A stretch of 64,000 nucleotides of DNA from Octopus vulgaris. Taxonomy: Eukaryota. Every line of letters starts with the position of its first letter. Within the stretch, counting starts at the first letter, position 1. Under the pieces are notes generated by a model. It had not been told where the DNA came from and ran no database searches. It worked only from the letters and a program-made list of their open reading frames with translations. Location: NCBI GenBank assembly GCA_951406725.2, contig OX597814.1, forward strand, positions 167,710,001 to 167,774,000, in the 5' to 3' direction. Shown here in pieces: positions 19,170-53,138 of the stretch. The position numbers and the translations under genes are program-made.

Positions 19170-19740
19170 TAGGCACAGCCATGGTTGTGTGGTTAGGCAC
19201 TTGCTTCCCAACCACATAGTTCTGGGTTCCGTCACACTGCATGGCACCTTGGGCAAGTATCTTCTGCTATAGCTCTGGGCTGACCAAAGTCTTGTGAGTG
19301 GATTTGATATATGGCAATTGAAAGAAGCCCATCGAGTATATATGTGTGTGCATTTTCGCCCCCAATACCACTTGACAACTAGTGTTGGTGTGTTTATATC
19401 CCCCATAACTTAGCTGTTTGGCAAAAGAGACTAAGAGAACAAGTACCAAGCTTAACCTTCTCGATACCAACCTGGCTGAAACCACCTCTGGCTCTTTAGT
19501 ACAAATGCCTTGTTTTCATAAGTTTTGTATTAAAATCTTCCATCAAACCTTAGTCACAATTTATGTTCCTAACACCAGCTCAATGATAACTTATTTTACT
19601 ACATTCTTTGTTATATTTAAAATCAATTGAAAGAAACACAGAGCATCTCAAAATAAATACAGTAACAAAAGGGTTAAAACAAAAAAGCACTAAAAGTTTT
19701 TCAAGGCAGTGCTCTAGTATGGCTACAGTCCAATGACTGT
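19170..19740 (+). mobile_element. tRNA/CORE-like SINE family A interrupted by a MITE
   Basis: Head plus GGCACCTTGGGCAAGT core; tail resumes after 19677. Confidence 0.75.
19456..19673. mobile_element. piggyBac-like MITE, family 2
   Basis: TTAA at 19452-19455 and 19674-19677; ends CCTT...AAGGG. Confidence 0.8.
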
Positions 19741-21619
19741 TGTTTCAAATATTCCCCAATCCATTGTATTTTAATGTGCCTCTGAAATCACTTCTGGTTC
19801 TGATACATGGCATTTTCATTTTTAACAGTTCAGATTTAAAACCTCTTGACATAATTTTACGTAAAACACTTTTTTGTTAAAATACATTTTAAACACCAAC
19901 TTAATGAAAGTTATTTCCCTGAATCCCTCCAAATACTTGATTATTTTAAAAATCAAATGAAACATACTAGTGGTGCCTTCATTAGAAATGTGAACACAAG
20001 AATTAATAAAGCAAGCAATAGAATGTTTACTTGAGACTAGAAAACATTTTGGCTGTGCTACATAAAAGAAAGATGCATTGGTCTATCTTAAATTTTTTGA
20101 TACTTACGATAAGATCTTGGATCAATCAACAAATTGTTAGTAAATATATTGATTGGTAATTCAATCAAAATAGCAAAAAAGGCAAAGAAAGATCTAAGAG
20201 ACTAAGCATTTTTTTAAAAATTTCATTTCTTGTTGTTGATGTGTGTTCAATAATGTCTGACCTAATAATTTATACACTGATGTTCTACCATAAGTTTAGC
20301 AAGTAGGAATAGTTGTGTTTGTTAATCTAGAGTTTATAGTCTTTTATGATTAGGATCAACATGATTCACGTCCTGACATTTGACATAACATTGTAATGTT
20401 ATATTGTAATTTACTTGTCGTTAAACTGTTGTTAACTATATGATTTTTTTTTTATGTTGACTTTTAAATTCACATCGAGCTAGTCTAATTCGCAGTACTG
20501 TTAGTAACTACATATGTTTTGTTTGTAAGTCTCTCCTTGTGAAATGCTAGTTATATGTGAACATATGATATTTGAAAAGTCAAGTATATATTTTTGCAGA
20601 CTGAAAATAAAATCCCTGTTTCACTCATATGTTTTCACTACTAACCATCATCATTTTATTGTGATAAAGCTACTGTACCTACAGTTCTGAGTTGAAGTTT
20701 TGCTATAGTTTCCTTAACTAAGTCTTCTCTTTGTCATTTTCATTTTGTAAATTTGAGAGATTTTATTCTCTGCATACAGTCTAGGAAAATGTTATAGCTT
20801 GGTGCTTTTATAACACTACTTAATAGGTACAGAATTTTTTTTCCTTTCCTTCCTTTTTTTTTTCAACTAAGCAATGCCTTACACTTGAAGTGTCAGTTGA
20901 TATCTTTAGGTATTTTCACATTTAATTGATTCCATGAGTTCTTTCGAGTTTTGGATGTCTGCAGGAGATTTGAGATTGATTCTTGAATGCAAAACCAAAC
21001 CATTTGTATAGAAGTGACCTTGTGCATTTATTCATACAGGTCTGTTTTTTTAATTAATAACTGAAATGAAATGAAGTAATTTTCAGATAAAATCATGTGA
21101 TTTTACATCCATCTATTGCCTAAAATGACTTAGTAACTGACTATCATAAATAGATAGTTGAAGTGGCAACTATTGTGCTGCAAAAGCATGTTCCCAACAG
21201 GATCAAGTTTTGACCTACTTATGATACATGTCTGGGACTTTTTCACTTCATTTACATTATTCATATTGATTTTAGACAGGTATGAAAATTTCAACTTTTA
21301 CTTCCCCTCCATTTCAAGTAGTAACTAACAATAATGTCTTGATAAGTATTATTGACAATGAGCATTTAGTCAGAAATTGAAGGCATTTTTTAAATATTTT
21401 TTCTTTTAGTGGATTCATTACAATTGTTTAAGATAAATATCTTGGATTCATAGATTGAAACATGGTCTAAATCACTCATAGGCAATCTACAGCCCATGGG
21501 AGTTTCTAAACAGCATACCTACCAAAAGAATTACCTTTAATTTCTTTAGTAGTGCAGCACACCAAATGATGAGTTATGCCTCATGCGGCCTACTTTTTGA
21601 AAAATGTTGCCCGTGCTTA

Positions 21620-22019
21620 GGCACAGGAGTGGCTGTGTGGTAAGTAGCTTGCTTACCAACCACATGGTTCCAGGTTCAGTCCCACTGTGTGGCACCTTGG
21701 GCAAGTGTCTTCTACTATAGCCTTGGGCTGACCAAAGCCTTGTAAGTGGATTTGGTAGACGGAAACTGAAAGAAGCCCGTCATATGTATACATGTATGTG
21801 TGTGTGTATATATTTGTGTGTCTATGTTTCCCCCCAACATCACTTGATAACCGATGCTGGTGTGTTTACATCCCCGTAACTTAGCAGTTTGGCAAAAGAG
21901 ACTGATAGAATAAGTACTAGGCTTACAAAGAATAAGTCCTGGGGTCGATTTGCTTGACTAAAGGCGGTGCTCCAGCATGGCCACAATCAAATGGCTGAAA
22001 CAAGTAAAAGAGAAAAGAG
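21620..22019 (+). mobile_element. SINE family A, full length
   Basis: Box A TGGCTGTGTGG, box B GGTTCAGTCC, CORE-like ACCTTGGGCAAGT, internal (TA/TG)n and tail ...GAAACAAGTAAAAGAG. Confidence 0.85.
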
Positions 22020-27831: not shown

Positions 27832-29205
<1,374 letters not shown>

Positions 29206-31943: not shown

Positions 31944-32334
31944 CTTGTATACAACATATACATAACTATGCCTTAGGTTAACCACCTCCTATGTCTAATT
32001 CTATTCAAATTTATGCCTTTTATCTTTAATTCACTAAAATCCAGCTTATTTATACACACACTCACATCCATATCCAAACATAAGCATTCACATTTATACA
32101 CACATGTCCATACACACACTTTCTCTCTTTCTCTCTCTCTCTCCCTCTCTCTCTCTCTTTCCCCTCTCTCTCTCTCTCTCCTTCTCTTTCCCTCTCTCAT
32201 CACTAACCAAAGCTAGACAATACTCTCCTCCCTGCAAGTTGTACCATATCCCTCTTCTACCTTCCCAAATCTTTGTACATGTATGGAACCCCTCCTTCAA
32301 CAGACTTCTTATTAGCTAAAACCCCGTTTGTTCC

Positions 32335-32611
32335 TGTGATAAGTGTGGTGAAAAGGAGCGTAACAGAACAAGGAAAAGAATTAGAAGTGTAATTTGGTCT
32401 TACCTGCAGAGATGAAGCCGGATTCGTCTTGAGCCAACTTGCTAGCGTCTTGTCGTCTTGGCGTCGTTCTCGAGTCTGACTGCCCTGGTCGATGCCGCAC
32501 ATGCGTTCTGTCTCTCACTTCCGCTTCCGCCGGCGCATGCGCCCTGCGAGACCTGCAAGACCCACTTCCACTCCCTCCCTCTCTGTCACACTCCCTCATC
32601 ACCACACCACA
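32335..32611 (-). repeat. 3' LTR (277 bp)
   Basis: Matches 36301-36557 apart from 2 substitutions and a 20-bp indel. Confidence 0.97.
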
Positions 32612-32624
32612 CGCCCCCTGATCT
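32612..32624 (-). other. Polypurine tract
   Basis: Minus-strand AGATCAGGGGGCG immediately before the 3' LTR. Confidence 0.7.
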
Positions 32625-32646
32625 ATAGATCACTGAACCGGCTTCC

Positions 32647-34647
32647 TCACTCGCTCCCGCACCTGAAACTGGTTTCGTAGTCAGCCAACCAGGGAGGAGG
32701 GTGCCGCTCCCTCTGTGGTTGCAGTGCGACCCTAGGACTTGTTTCTGGCGTGTTGCTGCCGACCTCGTCATCCTGTCTGTTGTTATCGTCTTGCCCACTG
32801 TTGCTTGTCCCATCCTCCGGGGCATGGACAATCCTCCGTATGTCCAAAACGTGGCGTGGCATACCATCTACCGAGATGTTATTCTTTGAATTTACGGAGG
32901 TTATTGTCCCCTTTCCCCATTGCGATGTACACCGTGCGTTCGGGGGTTTCACCCAGACTTCCTCCCCGACCTGCACGAAGGCGTGCTCTTCCTCTGCCCC
33001 GGGTCGCATTGATGTAGTACACGGATGCCTCCACTCGTACCTGAATATTGCCCTGTGTGGCACTGACTCCTCGGCCTGTCCTGATCTGAGCGACATGTTG
33101 TACCAAAACACGGCCTCGACTGGTGAAATGTGACCCCTCTCAGCCATGGCCTTGATGGTACGATGATGCCTTTCCACCACCCCGTTTCCACTTGGCCGGT
33201 ATGCCGCCCTGAAGAAGCGGTTGACCTTCCACTCATCAAGCATTTCTCTCAGCGCCTCCGAGCGAAATGCAGTGCCGTTGTCCAGAAGCAGTTCATCCAC
33301 GGGGCCTCGTTCCAGGAATATCTCGTTCAGCACTTTCGCAATTTCTTCTGCGGTTCCTGACCTCATCTCCCTCCATATGGCGAACCGCCCCGGTCCGCAG
33401 TCAACCATTGAGAGGTATGTCCCCTGCCGGTAGTGTGTTATGTCCACCGCCAGTCGTCTCCAGTCCTGGTCCACTGGAATACTTCCCGCTTCATGCACGA
33501 CCGGAGCAGGGTCGATGGACTGGCACCTGTCACAACTGCTAACCACTCTCCGCACGCTCTGTCTTGTTACGTCGGAGTCGACTTTTCTGGCCAGGAACAA
33601 CGTCCTGTCCACACCCATGTGATGCATGGTGTGCAGTCTCCGCAACTCCGAGTCGCTCAGATGGCATACTGCAGCTACATCCTGCTTCGCGTCCTCTGGC
33701 ACTTGCAACCAGGCTCGCTTAACCCTGGTCAGGACGTCTGCCCTGTTCTTCTCGGAAGGCACAAAGATCACGCTCAGCTTCAGATTGAACTCAGTGGTCA
33801 GTTCACGCAGTATCCCCAATCGACGCTTTACCAGCATCTCTGCAGCCCCTTTGGTCCGCACCCTCCGCTCATCGGTGATGACTGCCGTCGCCCAACCAAG
33901 TACAGTGGCTGAATCAGTCCTGATTTCTATGGTGTGCAACCCCCACTTCAAGGCTAGGTTCACCCCCTTCAGCACGGCTTCCAACTCCGCCACGTTGATG
34001 TGACTGCAGTCATCCATCTTCCTGAGCCAGGCTGCATCTTCCACCGTGACACCTCCCACTTCCAAGACAATCCCTATTGCGATGCTACTGGTGTCACACC
34101 ATACGATCCCGCTCTTTGATTTGGGAACGTACCAGCTGCCCCTCACCGGGTCCTCTGCTCTTACTCTGACCAGGACTTCCTGCATCATGTCGATCGTCCT
34201 CTCCTCCACTTTATCATTCCACTTCACTCCTTCGGCTCGTCTCTTGATGAAGCTGCATGCTGTCCGGAGCCAGCCTGCAATCGGGTAGTGTCCCACCAGC
34301 TTCCCACACACAGAGAACAGCTCCCGTCTACTCATGCTGGCGCCCAGTTCAGGGATCTCATTCCCTCGCCGGAACACCAAGGCGCCGGCTTTGTCTCTCC
34401 ATAGCTTGAGGCCCAGTGCAGCACCTCCCTCCATAGCCTCTGGCGGCTTGGCGATCAGTCCAAAACTCTTCAGGTGGCCTATGACCTCCGTTGCTGGTAT
34501 CACGGTTTCATCCACCAGAATGTCGTCGATGTATGAATTGGTGGCCCTTTTTACTCTGTCCACCTTCCCCAGGACGGCCTTGAGAATTGTTGCCATAATC
34601 TTCGGAGCTGAATTCAGCCCGAATCCCAACCTGGTCAGACAGTACGT
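32647..34647 (-). CDS. pol: Pol C-terminal part: RT (YIDD), RNase H, integrase
   Basis: RT: YCLTRLGFGLNSAP and NSYIDDILV. RNase H: WCDTS, ELEA, TDS, ADVL. Integrase: H-H-CDRC plus D(ITH), D(NG), E(R). Separated from upstream pol by a frameshift. Confidence 0.93.
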   Translation of the reverse strand, partial: TYCLTRLGFGLNSAPKIMATILKAVLGKVDRVKRATNSYIDDILVDETVIPATEVIGHLKSFGLIAKPPEAMEGGAALGLKLWRDKAGALVFRRGNEIPELGASMSRRELFSVCGKLVGHYPIAGWLRTACSFIKRRAEGVKWNDKVEERTIDMMQEVLVRVRAEDPVRGSWYVPKSKSGIVWCDTSSIAIGIVLEVGGVTVEDAAWLRKMDDCSHINVAELEAVLKGVNLALKWGLHTIEIRTDSATVLGWATAVITDERRVRTKGAAEMLVKRRLGILRELTTEFNLKLSVIFVPSEKNRADVLTRVKRAWLQVPEDAKQDVAAVCHLSDSELRRLHTMHHMGVDRTLFLARKVDSDVTRQSVRRVVSSCDRCQSIDPAPVVHEAGSIPVDQDWRRLAVDITHYRQGTYLSMVDCGPGRFAIWREMRSGTAEEIAKVLNEIFLERGPVDELLLDNGTAFRSEALREMLDEWKVNRFFRAAYRPSGNGVVERHHRTIKAMAERGHISPVEAVFWYNMSLRSGQAEESVPHRAIFRYEWRHPCTTSMRPGAEEEHAFVQVGEEVWVKPPNARCTSQWGKGTITSVNSKNNISVDGMPRHVLDIRRIVHAPEDGTSNSGQDDNNRQDDEVGSNTPETSPRVALQPQRERHPPPWLADYETSFRCGSE

Positions 34648-35543
34648 CGGCCCCTATACCTGACGAGCTGGTACCTCCATAGTTTCTCAGCCACATGAAC
34701 CTGAAGGTATGCCGACTTTAAATCGACAATCGTGGAGGCCCCCGCCGTCTGCCTCCACTCTCGCAAGGTGTCTCCGCAGACATCCGTGGCCTCGCCACCT
34801 GTATGACACGACACGTGGTCATTCAGCTCTCGGAAGTCGAGCACTGGCCTGACCTTACGCTTTGTGGGCAGTGGCAGGACTCCGCTCTCTTCTTTTTCCC
34901 AGGGGATCAGTATGCCCTCCTTAATCCACCGCTCCACCTCCCCCTCGAACTCACTTCTGGCATCTCCTTTTAGAGTATGCTGATAGCAGCCCACTTTGTT
35001 CTTTAACATCGGGGGCTCTCCCTTCCAGTGCCACTCCACTGTCCACCTCTCGCCATCAAAGACAGCCCGAAAATCCTGGTCTTCAATGGTGTGCGCCGCA
35101 TCCATTTCCTCACGGTTGTCGTCGGTGCGTGGTGTCGCCCTACACGGCTTCCCTGCTAGCCCAAACGTTACGCCAGCCTCGTTGACGGTAACACCTCCCA
35201 GACGGGTGATCGCATCCATCCCCATCACCACGTCGATCTCGTCCACCAAGTGACCGACCACAATCGCTCGCAACGTCAGCTGCAGTCCCTGCACCACGAT
35301 CTGCGCATCCATAACCCCTTCGCAGTGCACTTCTCTTCCGTCGACTGCCCTGACATTGCTTCCTCCACTCCACGTCTCTGCCACTTCTGTGGTCATCAGG
35401 GTCGTCGTACAGCCCGTGTCCACCAGGGCTCGCGACATCTTCCCCTTCACCAGAATGTCGACCACAGGTAACGATGAGAAACGCTCCGCTACTAATCCAA
35501 AGGGACAACTACCGGCGCAGTAGTCTCCCGCGGTCCGTTTCCC
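34635..35543 (-). CDS. pol: Pol N-terminal part: aspartic protease and RT N-terminus
   Basis: ALVDTGCTTTL protease motif; KVRPVLDFRELN and VDLKSAYLQ RT motifs. Lies in the -1 frame relative to gag. Confidence 0.9.
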   Translation of the reverse strand, partial: GKRTAGDYCAGSCPFGLVAERFSSLPVVDILVKGKMSRALVDTGCTTTLMTTEVAETWSGGSNVRAVDGREVHCEGVMDAQIVVQGLQLTLRAIVVGHLVDEIDVVMGMDAITRLGGVTVNEAGVTFGLAGKPCRATPRTDDNREEMDAAHTIEDQDFRAVFDGERWTVEWHWKGEPPMLKNKVGCYQHTLKGDARSEFEGEVERWIKEGILIPWEKEESGVLPLPTKRKVRPVLDFRELNDHVSCHTGGEATDVCGDTLREWRQTAGASTIVDLKSAYLQVHVAEKLWRYQLVRYRGRRTV

Positions 35544-36247
35544 CGCAGACACTCGCTGGCCACATGCCCCGGCTCTCGGCACCGGTAGCAAATCACCTCG
35601 GGCTTGGGCAACGCGCAGTCACGGACCATGTGTGGGCCCTGGCACCGGAAACACTGTCCCTTAAACGACCGCACACGTTCTTTCCCCAGCCCCTCTCCGT
35701 TGCTCCTAGCTGGGCCACTTTTCGACGTTGCAGTCGCTGCTACCGACGTCAACCTGCTGCACGACACCAGTACACGTGCCCGTGATATAATCTCGGCCAT
35801 CGGCATCGAACGCACGTTCGGGAGCTTCTGTAGCTCGACCGACATGATGTCGGGAAAGCCGGTCACGAACGCTAACCTGACCGTGCGTTCTAGCGACTCT
35901 CCCTCATATCCCGCAAGTTTTGCCAACCTTCTAAGCTCGCCGGCGAACACGTCCACCTGCTGTCCTGTCCACCTCATCCTACCCAGTCGAGTGTACGCTT
36001 CGAACATTCCTTCCGCGAAGGCCTCCATAAGTCGGATCTCCACCTTGTCCGCGCTGCGTTGGTCCGCTTCCTCCATCTCCAGATATAACGCCAACGCCGG
36101 GCCATCCAAATACAACGGCATAAAACTAGCCAGGTCAGCTATGCCGTGTAGCTTCGCCACCAACTTCACCCTCCTCAACCAAGCGACCACGTCGGTGTCG
36201 CCGCAAAACGGTGTTATAGGGTCGCGTGAAATCATAGCAGTCTGCAT
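35492..36247 (-). CDS. gag: Gag (251 aa) with two zinc knuckles
   Basis: ATG after an A-rich leader; CFRCQGPHMVRDC and CYRCREPGHVASEC. Confidence 0.92.
   Translation of the reverse strand: MQTAMISRDPITPFCGDTDVVAWLRRVKLVAKLHGIADLASFMPLYLDGPALALYLEMEEADQRSADKVEIRLMEAFAEGMFEAYTRLGRMRWTGQQVDVFAGELRRLAKLAGYEGESLERTVRLAFVTGFPDIMSVELQKLPNVRSMPMAEIISRARVLVSCSRLTSVAATATSKSGPARSNGEGLGKERVRSFKGQCFRCQGPHMVRDCALPKPEVICYRCREPGHVASECLRGNGPRETTAPVVVPLD
35502..35543 (-). promoter_or_regulatory. -1 programmed ribosomal frameshift signal
   Basis: G GGA AAC heptamer in gag frame (35543-35537), 7-nt spacer, then hairpin GGGA-GACTACTG-CGC-CGGTAGTT-G-TCCC. Confidence 0.85.
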
Positions 36248-36288
36248 AATTTTTATTTTTTATTTTCACGAAACCGAGTGATTATTTT

Positions 36289-36300
36289 GCCGAAATAGCT
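36289..36300 (-). other. Non-canonical primer-binding site complementary to tRNA-Phe nt 1-12
   Basis: Plus strand GCCGAAATAGCT equals the 5' end of metazoan tRNA-Phe(GAA). It abuts the 5' LTR with no spacer and no TGG. Confidence 0.7.
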
Positions 36301-36557
36301 TGTGATAAGTGTGGTGAAAAGGAGCGTAACAGAACAAGGAAAAGAATTAGAAGTGTAATTTGGTCTTACCTGCAGAGATGAAGCCGGATTCGCCTTGAGC
36401 CAACTTGCTAGCGTCTTGTCGTCTTGGCGTCGTTCTCGAGTCTGACTGCCCTGGTCGATGCCGCACGTGCGTTCTGTCTCTCACTTCCGCTTCCGCCGGC
36501 GCATGCGCCCTGCGAGACCTGCAAGACCCACTTCCACTCCCTCATCACCACACCACA
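36301..36557 (-). repeat. 5' LTR (257 bp)
   Basis: TGTG...CACA ends; followed on the plus strand by TSD GTTCC. Confidence 0.97.
36462..36508 (-). promoter_or_regulatory. LTR U3 motif cluster: NRF1-like palindrome, tandem ETS sites, E-box
   Basis: Minus strand GCGCATGCGC-CGG-CGGAAG-CGGAAGTG ... CGCACGTGCG. Confidence 0.5.
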
Positions 36558-37690
36558 GTTCCAATTGAACCAACACAGCTAAAACTTATAAGTAACTGTC
36601 ACATTTGATATACAAATTATGTTTGACTTGACAATTAGTATTGAGTTCTACATCAGATATGGTTTTTGTTAATGTTTAACTTTCCCCCATATATGTTGAA
36701 TATCTGTGCTATAAATTCATATCATATCCAGTGGTTTACTATGTCTTAATTTGTAATGTGGCCATTGTTATTCCTATATTTAGTTTGTTAGAATGATGTT
36801 TTTCTTAGATGTTACTCTTATCAGAAACCTGTTTTTGTTTTTAATCAAGAATTACTATCTATAATAAGAAATTTTTAAAAAAAGAAAGAAAAAGGCTAAA
36901 TAAATATAAAAATAACCTAAAAATTCTGTAGGTGTGTATAAGAAAAATTGTGGGAGTGAAAAAAAAACTAATGTCTTTTACAAAAGAAAATTTGTTTCAC
37001 TTAAATGATCAATGTTAATTGATTCAGATAGTATTTAAATCAATAGTAGTATTATATTTGCAAAAGGCAAATTTCAAATGGTACTGGTTGAACCTTCTGG
37101 GGGAATGCCAGATATCGATGAAAATACATTTCAATGTATCATCATTATTCCATTCAGTGGAATTATGAACTTGATCATGAAGTTAAAGTATCAGAGCAGG
37201 ATTGCTTTGCTACCGACTCATTATTTCATGTTTTAGCAGACTTTTTTTTTAATGTTTTTATGTATTTTATATTTTGATTTTGATATCATACTAAAAGTAA
37301 TATCAAATGACTTAGTTCAGTTGTTTTGTTTGTTTTTACAATTACTGAGGCATTGTTTTACAGCCAGATACCCTTCCTGCTGCCTACCCTTATCTATTTT
37401 ATCTTTTCAACTTAAGGAGTTTTCATTCCACTCATTTCAAAAGCACAGAGCTACTGGATAAGTTGTTAACAGGGAAATGGTAATAGATGATGGTGTCCAT
37501 ACTTCAATGATTTTTCAGATTACCAAATATAAGCATTCACACTGACACACATATAAACATACTAAATTCCCTTACAAGACATTGGTTACCCCAGGGCTAC
37601 AGTAGAAAATATTTATCCAAGGTGTGACACAGAGGAACAAGACCTGAAACCAAAGTTGTAAAGTGAATTTTCTTAACCACAAACAGTCAT

Positions 37691-49839: not shown

Positions 49840-52736
49840 AAATGAAGTCCTTTGTGATATTAGTTCTGCCTTAATGGACAGTCTCATTCATTCACCATCA
49901 TAAATGCTGTGAAGCAGCAATTGTCCCATTGAAAACTTTTAACCAATGACACAATTCTTTACAAAATGAGATATAAAATTAATAAGACAGGTGGAAATTG
50001 GGAACAAGTTGTATGTTTGGCTTTCTAAAATTTAACTTTGTTTATTGTATTTGCCTAAGACAAAATAATGAATTTTACTTGTGGAGGCTATATATTTTAT
50101 ACCCCTTTATTTATAAGCTAATGAAATCCACCATTTTGACAATTCAGCAACAAGGCAGCTTTTTAACAATATGGAATCGTCCATGAATTCACATTTATTA
50201 ATATATCAGAAAAGTTTAATTTGAAATAGAACAGCAGAAAGGGAAAAATGGACATGAAAACAGTGTTGATCGTGATGTTGATGATTAATAAGGTGAAATT
50301 GTTGATTGCTTGAGAAGAGATTGAAAATAGAAGATAAGAAATGGCTGAATAAATGATAAATGCTAAAAGTAGATAATAAGCAGAAAATGTAATTAAGTCA
50401 GGGAAAATTTTGAATGAGGCAGTTAAAATTGGTCTGAAGGAAATGGAAGAAACAGAAGATATGAGCTTGGTAGAATATTGCATAAAGTAATCATGAAACC
50501 TCATCTAACTGATGTTAGCCTGAAAGAAAGAGAAAAAGTATTTATAGTAGCCTAATCTCAAACATTATTTTTTCTCTACTGGTCCCAGTTATATATCTGC
50601 ATTGACTGCTACTTCCACTGCGTGATTGTTTGCTTCTTACTTATCTATTTTCCTCCATCCATTTACATCAAACATTTTTCACCTCATTTTTTTTTCCCCA
50701 TCTGATACCATTATCTTCATATGATTTTAATCTCATTGAAATTTATAGTTCTAAGCTGCATGTACTGTATGCTGTTTATGTTCAATTGTGTTTTTAGTTT
50801 TAAAAATCAATACCTTGATTTGAATGTTAAAATAGTCTCCTAGAAAAAAAAAAACTGGGTTTTTTCTCTCCTCCCTGGTTATTTCTCTATGTCAGAATGG
50901 ATAGGATGGTTTCTGCCTATTTGGATATTCACATATTGTTAGACCAATATTTTTTATTATGTAGTTGTTCTACTACAAATATTCAACCTTAAAGAATGAG
51001 AGGTACCTGGCATGCAGACTGATTCAGTTTCAGTAAAGTTTTGTTTAAGTGAAAAAGACAATGGTTTCAGACAAAATTGGATGCTAGGTCCACTTGCCCA
51101 ATAACTTAACTGTATAACAGCTATTTTAGAAGAGTGTATAAATGTTTGCTTCTTATTTGCATCATATGTTGAGCTCACTTTTTTTATTGCTTACTTGCAA
51201 ATCAGAGCTTATCTATATATATTAAAATTTTACTGGATTTAATATTCTTCAAAAATTCTTGATAGTACATTCTCTATAACAAACACTTTACCTCACCAAA
51301 ATATTTACATATTGCTTTAAAAATTGTACTGTTCTCTGATTTTCTTTGTAAAATGATAAATCCCCAGTTTGCAATTTTCGATAACTTCATCAATCATTTT
51401 TATTGATTCATCCATTTAAAACGCTAATGCTTTGTATGTATTTTTCACCAACATTAACTTCAGTCACCCACCATAATGTGTATAGAATAGAAACACAGTA
51501 AATAAGAAATGACAAGACTTTCCTTGCTTTAAGATCATGGTCCTCTTTCATTTAGTCAGCTATTGATGTGATTGAGCATAATGCTTCTGATATCAAACAC
51601 TACTTAGAGATAAGTGCAAAATAATGTAATGCAGCTAACATTACTTAAAATGATATTGACAATTATGATAATGCTCACAACAATGATGAATAGTTTTGAA
51701 AAAAATTTTTTTTTTTTTTCTGTTTCTAGTGTGTGTTCTGTTTTACGTATAGCAATAAAACATTCATAAAAGATATTTGAATAACGCTTCCTGTTTATTC
51801 CCCATCTGGTTTTATAGTGAAAGATTATTCATAGAAAAATAACTTTCACTGATAAAATGAATTTTCAAATCAGTAAAAAGTATATGACTTCTGCCATGCA
51901 TGCTAACTCTGAATGTTATATTGTATAAATTGTCATCTTATTAAGCCTTAAATTTCAATTTTTAAAAAATATTCACGAGTTAAAACTCCCAATCACGAGT
52001 GTGATGTGATTAGTGTTTTGTTTTCTGTTCACCTATGGACTTGAAACTCACAAACAGAAAATATTAAAACCTATCCATATAGCTATTAAAGCTGCATTTT
52101 TGTTTTTTTGTTTTTTTTCAAAATGTTCCAAACAGCAATCTAACATGATTTAATAATAGAAAAACAAAAAATTTAATATGTTTACATTTTAATCCTCTAT
52201 CTATTATAAAAGAGTTCAAGTAATAATAAATCATAATACTCTTTTGAGACAGTTTGAGAAAGGAAAGGAGAACAATCTAATCTTCTTGCAGATAAGTAAA
52301 AGCCTGTGTAACTAAGTTTGTGGATGTCTTAAGTTCAGGATTCTAAATTAACTTTCTAAATAGCTACGTTACCATGTATAATGAATTATGTGAAATGTAG
52401 ACAGTGGCTTTCAGCATGAAAACAGTGCATCAACTTTAGTAATTAAAGAGTAATGAAGTAGATAGATGGATAATTGGGTAAATATTATAATAGTACTATA
52501 ATGTAATTCAGAACTTCTTAAGTATGTAAGCACCTGGAGATAAATGGCCTAAACTGAATGGAATATTTATTTCATAGGTTATAACTAAAGATGATAGATG
52601 ATAACTAAAGTAACTTGAAATAAATCAACTCTGACAAAATAGTATTCATACTAGATAAGATAAAGAAAAATCATTTTTTCTTGAGAGATGAAAAAACTTG
52701 TGGCAATAGATAATATTACTAATAATAATGATGATA

Positions 52737-53138
52737 GGCGCAGGAGCGGCTGTGTGATAAGTAGCTTGTTTACCAACCACATGGTTCCAGGTTCAGTCCC
52801 ACTGCGTGGCACCTTGGGCAAGTGTCTTCTACTATAACCTCGGGCCGACCGAAGCCTTGTGAGTGGATTTGGTAGACGGAAACTGAAAGAAGCCCGTCGT
52901 ATATATGTATATATATGTATGTGTGTGTGTATGTTTGTGTGTCTGTGTTTGTTCCCCTAGCATTGCTTGACAACCGATGCTGGTGTGTTTATGTCCCCGT
53001 CACTTAGCGGTTCGGCAAAGGAGACTGATAGAATAAGTACTGGGCTTACAAAGAATAAGTCCCGGGGTCGAGTTGCTCGATTAAAGGCGGTGCTCCAGCA
53101 TGGCTGCAGTCAAAATGACTGAAACAAGTAAAAAGAAA

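Follow-up and report, generated by a model that had tools for sequence, protein, structure and literature searches.

A putative primer-binding site matching the extreme 5' end of tRNA-Phe in a Gypsy-order LTR retrotransposon lineage of Octopus vulgaris

Which RNA primes reverse transcription in a retrotransposon whose long terminal repeat (LTR) is followed directly by the complement of the first nucleotides of a tRNA? The question is raised by a young 4.2-kb LTR element of Gypsy-type order, with a DUF7047 domain in pol, that lies on the - strand of a 64,000-nucleotide stretch of the Octopus vulgaris genome (GenBank assembly GCA_951406725.2, contig OX597814.1, positions 167,710,001 to 167,774,000), here called the window. 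In the accessible part of a large survey of LTR elements three types of primer are distinguished, namely the whole tRNA, a half tRNA cut in the anticodon stem, and a self-primer (PMC6317226), and the accessible part of another study places anticodon-loop sites in fungal Copia and Helenus elements and 3'-end sites in animal Gypsy elements (PMC10886601). From comparison of sequences, the best reading of the Octopus site is truncated-tRNA priming that uses the extreme 5' end of the tRNA, in a Gypsy-order lineage.

The features of the element are collected in Table 1. Along pol, Pfam finds protease, reverse transcriptase (RT), DUF7047, RNase H and integrase in that sequence, and with an integrase downstream of RT and RNase H, two TG...CA LTRs and a target duplication the element is an LTR retrotransposon of Gypsy-type domain order; 5-bp target duplications are found in further families too. 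Aligned with each other, the two LTRs show 2 substitutions and 20 gap columns; about 20 nt of the 3' LTR (window 32578-32597) that are absent from the 5' LTR occur with the same letters in a contig of run X13. The pol of this copy is broken over two frames, whereas other copies have a single long open frame. In the -1 frame overlap of gag and pol (35492-35618), a slippery-looking G GGA AAC stands just 5' of the gag stop, and at a like position a distant relative, L341, has A AAA AAC. Elsewhere in the window there are dispersed repeats of about 200-370 nt with a SINE-like look (19170-19373, 21618-21991, 52735-53114 and others) and, near 28,000, long AT microsatellites.

Table 1. Features of the element in the window (positions count from the first letter of the window).
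Feature	Position	Strand	Remark
Target-site duplication GGAAC, upstream copy	36558..36562	-	
5' LTR, 257 nt, TG...CA	36301..36557	-	
Primer-binding site (putative)	36289..36300	-	complementary to nt 1-12 of host tRNA-Phe(GAA)
Leader, 41 nt, PBS to gag start	36248..36288	-	first base is the most variable near-PBS site among close copies
gag	35492..36247	-	two CCHC-type zinc knuckles, one by Pfam zf-CCHC, the second by eye
pol part 1: aspartyl protease, RT start	34635..35618	-	-1 frame overlap with gag end
pol part 2: RT palm, DUF7047, RNase H, integrase	32647..34653	-	
Purine-rich tract	32612..32629	-	CG at its end directly adjoins the 3' LTR
3' LTR, 277 nt	32335..32611	-	
Target-site duplication GGAAC, downstream copy	32330..32334	-	

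On the + strand of the window the candidate primer-binding site (PBS) reads GCCGAAATAGCT. Read along the element, which is itself on the - strand, AGCTATTTCGGC (36300-36289) stands immediately 3' of the terminal CA of the LTR and is followed by the leader and then by gag; in the element RNA the junction runs ...UCACA and directly on into AGCUAUUUCGGC. An earlier, sequence-only reading had described a 12-nt match to the 5' end of tRNA-Phe with neither a spacer nor UGG after the CA of the LTR, and both statements hold: the CA adjoins the site with a spacer of 0, UGG is absent, and 36289-36300 is the complement of host nt 1-12. The start of tRNA-Phe on which that reading relied agrees with the host genome, where a 15-nt tRNA-Phe start has 94 matches (0 for the reversed control) and a tRNA-Phe(GAA) gene starts exactly at the match in each of the 12 loci scanned among those 94, so that the site is the complement of tRNA nt 1-12. 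In this orientation the 3' end of a primer at nt 12 would point into U5. Genome-wide, CA joined to the 12-mer is counted 287 times and the reversed control 14 times. Among the host tRNA genes themselves there is a tandem tRNA-Phe array of 200-bp period at G000:C18:30147732-30157146 (locus L344 is part of it), in which tRNA-Phe(GAA) is the call for 7/7 units of the 1.5 kb fetched, and clusters at C18:4.25 Mb (L345) mix Phe and Asn tRNAs.

Conservation of the site was followed from close copies to distant ones. Among 40 matches, the window copy counted, the closest 30 were fetched, and 29 of these carry the 12-mer exactly. In a set of 60 loci with 47-92% Gag identity, taken from 153 Gag matches, 37 carry the exact 12-mer, 17 depart from it at one position, 5 at two, and 1 lacks the site; 59/60 are thus within two mismatches, down to 47% Gag identity, and ACA stands directly 5' of the site in 56 of the 59. 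Selection of the first 20 of these loci came after the pattern list was known and was not blind; they comprise 14 exact sites, 5 one-mismatch sites and 1 two-mismatch site. The other 40, selected on their Gag rank and their coverage of the N-terminus, comprise 23, 12 and 4 in the same classes and 1 locus that has no site. In 12,000 trials with shuffled 12-mers, one mismatch was reached 4 times and zero mismatches never. Column entropy over the 59 loci is 0-0.53 bits at PBS positions 1-12 and 1.75 bits at the next base, and this jump means that conservation stops exactly at mature tRNA nt 1, beyond which the mature tRNA has no next base. All 40 pattern matches fetched (from the first 100 of the 287) are preceded by ACA, their flanks are highly varied, and most lie before gag or pol remnants. 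With a 12-mer kept at the LTR edge while its diverged neighbours vary, as had been proposed as a check, the site is, judged by its conservation, a real, lineage-wide feature.

A set of 20 loci selected by DUF7047, half of them picked for lack of an exact match, gave 11 with the site after ACA (at most 2 mismatches), 1 ambiguous and 8 without it; an intact LTR-leader junction was not recognised in any of the 8, and no different site was found at any LTR edge among the 20. As a control, 20 ordinary Gypsy elements from a handful of families were fetched from the same host genome, and TGG lies within 0-3 nt of the LTR in 19/19 of those with an LTR pair. The base after the PBS is changed on 13 of 62 near-neighbour links, which are not independent of one another, and this is the highest count among 72 positions (the next is 10). 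Such a variable base would fit an RT that runs off the 5' end of its primer, and this is only suggestive because the base stands in a CpG context, whose decay could explain part of the variability. Ty1 and Ty3 are reported, in the accessible text of PMC7472051, as not copying the primer into the PBS. In two copies (L215, L256) a short stretch of the leader start is duplicated just after the PBS, and the duplication carries the final letters of the PBS region again, which looks like a slipped strand transfer at the junction. Three others (L221, L223, L243) are internally deleted, with about 0.3-1.3 kb between LTRs that are 97-99% alike and with the PBS kept, and are possibly non-autonomous derivatives.

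Outside the host genome, the register of the site is kept in 3/3 relatives that show the junction. The nearest of them by protein, L213 (Gag 36-47%, pol 58%), retains the Phe 12-mer after ACA. In L341 (Gag 28%, pol 41%), ACTAAA is followed by AGCTATCCGGGC a few bases 5' of the gag start; this is a stray contig within a prokaryote bin, its junction follows AAA and not ACA, and no second LTR fixes the edge. A tRNA-Lys gene of the Octopus genome (L347), which is maybe not the genome of the L341 host, begins with the complement of the L341 site; a start of this type has 3 matches in the Octopus genome, 1 of them a tRNA gene. A forward primer for human tRNA-Lys3 opens with the same complement in the accessible text of PMC3832253, and the L341 site probably pairs with the 5' end of tRNA-Lys. 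The decayed copy L343 reads TTACA, then AGCTATCACGGC, then a gag remnant, and the complement of its site opens 8 ARAGORN-called tRNA genes among 40 matches in viral contigs, so that it would fit tRNA starts known from records other than that of L343. In both sites the letters facing tRNA nt 8-12 and 1-3 are retained and just 2-3 letters per site are altered, all of them in the acceptor stem opposite nt 4-6, as expected if the site tracks tRNA 5' ends. Related elements with a TGG PBS, which would have spoken against the sequence-only reading, were not seen; where distant relatives have an altered site, the alteration follows the 5' ends of other tRNAs.

The Lys-type site is not enriched in the Octopus genome (3 occurrences against 9 for the control). 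Two further Lys-type 12-mers in prokaryote bin G001 proved to be unrelated DNA, L214 was rejected as a chance match, and in L342 and L364 the sequence ends before the junction. None of 120 pattern loci in viral contigs encodes a pol of the DUF7047 lineage, a Gag scan over prokaryote genome contigs gave no match, and DUF7047 searches added no element from a further 85 and 401 genomes. Two prokaryote bins, G001 and G002 (L341-L343, L360-L386), are rich in retroelement-like contigs, apparently through eukaryotic contamination.

A protein search returned 956 relatives of the element's proteins, with Octopus, Argonauta, Aplysia, Petrolisthes, Oratosquilla, Hydra and Macrosteles among the named source organisms, and DUF7047 relatives span molluscs, arthropods (crustaceans and insects) and cnidarians. 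The DUF7047 element group that carries the site is widespread in animals and little studied. In a tree of RT sequences, a very long branch (100/99) separates 25 DUF7047 proteins from 5 ordinary Gypsy RTs of the host; the tree is rooted at its midpoint, contains neither an outgroup nor named references and comes with a warning on long branches, so that it shows the distance of the lineage and not its position. The RNase H of the lineage matches the Pfam models RVT_3/RNase_H and not the usual Gypsy model RT_RNaseH. By these comparisons the lineage is one of deeply diverged, Gypsy-order LTR retrotransposons. Fold and PDB searches gave only a general PR-RT-RNase H-IN likeness. For the names MolGy, PolGy, Mag and CsRN1 the readable supplements of PMC6238403 hold no matching strings, and a clade name could not be recovered from the accessible parts of the mollusc, annelid, crustacean or Ginger literature. 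A sister group (P0249, P0253, P0256, P0267, P0270) has a DUF7047 RT, its gag and pol are fused, and its longer integrase contains an H2C2 domain that is clear; no closer member of it was found in the Octopus genome.

How could such a site be used? We consider it likely that minus-strand synthesis is primed from a 5' fragment, 10-12 nt long, of a mature tRNA, here tRNA-Phe, and the geometry of the site suggests that the primer is a 3'-truncated tRNA. Computed energies are -18.7 kcal/mol for the 12-bp duplex of PBS and tRNA and a cost of 9.2 for opening tRNA nt 1-12, in a minimum-energy fold that is not a perfect cloverleaf. The PBS contains UUUCGGC, the same seven letters as the 3' acceptor strand of tRNA-Phe, which would allow it to displace that strand and to open the D-stem. 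During this invasion, in which the zinc knuckles of Gag would help, the acceptor strand would be displaced and the D-stem opened; a cut in the tRNA at the edge of the 12-bp RNA duplex, or close to it, would then give a free 3' OH at nt 10-12, the RT would extend this new 3' OH into U5, and removal of the primer would define the end of the LTR. That the cut is made at the duplex edge by the element's own RNase H, in the style of Tf1, has in our estimate close to an even chance and is slightly favoured over the trimming of a host fragment. The fuller proposal is held a little more tentatively: the RNA of what would be a large, old animal lineage with DUF7047 pol would invade the acceptor stem and its own RNase H would cut the tRNA in trans to a 10-12 nt primer, with the tRNA switchable (Phe, Lys, others) and the register at nt 1 kept. 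If true, tRNA priming and Tf1 self-priming would be united in a single mechanism.

The cut may be located inside the D-stem (nt 10-13) and not in the D-loop, with the 3' end of the primer at nt 10, 11 or 12. In 19 of 22 junctions counted, a CG dinucleotide stands between the purine tract and the TG of the 3' LTR, which suggests that the DNA ends are processed by 2 nt; in that case nt 10 may be the last of the primer, or two ribonucleotides may be left behind by RNase H. The sequence-only reading had named a D-arm-cleaved 5' tRNA fragment as the primer; the sequence of the site supports the 5' fragment, and the place of the cut is now refined to the D-stem, at nt 10-12.

It is possible, if somewhat doubtful, that the element's RNase H is uninvolved and that a host-made 5' tRNA fragment of at least 14 nt anneals by its first 12 nt and has its tail trimmed by a host 3' exonuclease. 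Since the LTR end offers no pairing for tRNA nt 13-15, such trimming would halt at nt 12. Neither a conserved U5 structure like that of Tf1 nor auxiliary pairing was seen, nor, in 11 elements, a common RNA fold around the PBS, and 5' tRNA fragments are a described class in the accessible text of PMC7472051. However, the fragment would have to be present across molluscs, arthropods and cnidarians. Host 5' tRNA fragments end in the D-loop, at about 14-16 nt or longer, and a cut at nt 10-12 within the D-stem counts against the proposed 10-12 nt primer. A shorter primer of nt 1-10 only, with the LTR-adjacent AG as a 2-nt overhang removed by integrase and with nt 11-12 matching either fortuitously or because they add pairing ahead of the cut, seems rather unlikely to us. 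The same CG before the TG suggests 2-nt processed ends on the other side, but the AG is conserved as strongly as the rest of the site, is retained in 3/3 outside relatives and is the exact complement of nt 11-12, and the same DNA end would result if RNase H left two ribonucleotides.

Self-priming in the style of Tf1, or priming by another part of the element RNA, is very improbable. A spacer of 0 and a site of 11-12 nt do resemble Tf1, but among 21 elements the best complement in the LTR reaches 8-11 of 12 letters even with G-U pairs and at scattered positions, with energies of -8.7 to -13.6 against -8.9 to -11.1 for shuffles and -18.7 kcal/mol for the tRNA; an internal 12/12 match with G-U pairs occurs in 1/21. 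The lack of a self-priming complement, claimed earlier for the LTR in the window, thus extends to all 21. It is also improbable, to a lesser degree, that the site binds an intact tRNA or a 5' fragment for packaging, silencing or integrase recognition while priming proceeds otherwise, for example from a freed CCA end. Displacement of the acceptor strand would indeed free the CCA end, but the site lies exactly where a primer must end to form the LTR edge, and a canonical tRNA-Phe 3'-end site is present at best with 2-3 mismatches and at scattered positions, with no conserved second contact: between tRNA nt 13-76 and U5 or the leader none is conserved in 21 elements (z -1.7 to +1.9). TGG near the LTR end is found in 0/21 elements, and a hidden canonical tRNA-Phe site was rejected, none being found in the 21.

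Priming by a truncated tRNA 5' end can be set beside the systems already described. The half-tRNA systems (Drosophila copia, yeast Ty5, Osser, Bryco, Bianca and fungal Copia/Helenus) share with the present proposal a 3'-truncated tRNA at the LTR edge, as far as described in the accessible parts of PMC10886601 and PMC6317226. Their primers, however, end in the anticodon arm, at about half of the tRNA, and are reported in lineages of Copia order, with integrase before RT, whereas the Octopus site covers nt 1-12, that is, the acceptor strand and the start of the D-stem, in an element of Gypsy domain order; complementarity to the anticodon arm, of the copia/Ty5 type, is not found at it. In Tf1, the primer is 11 nt long and is released through RNase H. 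The self-priming of Tf1/sushi and Tj1 resembles the present case in that the short 5' end of an RNA, paired at the LTR edge, must be cut free (accessible text of PMC4600332), but there the primer comes from the element's own transcript, whereas the Octopus element would take a tRNA in trans, its LTR has no complement, and it has no chromodomain by Pfam. Self-priming and unexplained sites are treated in PMC4600332, PMC5006619 and PMC6934838, none of them of the tRNA nt 1-12 kind in the text accessible, and the accessible text of PMC13191261 holds nothing further on such sites. With canonical Ty3/Gypsy elements the lineage shares the PR-RT-RH-IN order, TG...CA LTRs and 5-bp target duplications, but these prime from the CCA end of the tRNA, whereas the Octopus element has no TGG site.

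No description of a site matching tRNA nt 1-12 was found in the literature searched, in keeping with the earlier statement that such priming was not known as described; Repbase, GyDB and most subscription journals lay outside that search, and an earlier note is possible. The sequence of the 12-mer itself appeared there, in the text accessible, only in works on RNA methyltransferases. Primer-binding sites are searched by tRNA 3' ends only in the methods of PMC13524379, as far as accessible, and under searches limited in this way the lineage would score as lacking a PBS, which is a blind spot. If the proposal is true, a primer made of the first 10-12 nt of a tRNA would be a fourth type beside the whole tRNA, the half tRNA and the self-primer of the accessible survey text (PMC6317226), and truncated-tRNA priming would be known outside Copia. 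It would require either an RNase H able to cleave a tRNA on an RNA duplex, or else a very short fragment of host tRNA that has gone unrecognised. Host 3' tRNA fragments silence elements at the PBS, according to the accessible text of PMC7472051; such fragments would not match the site of this lineage, whereas 5' fragments would.
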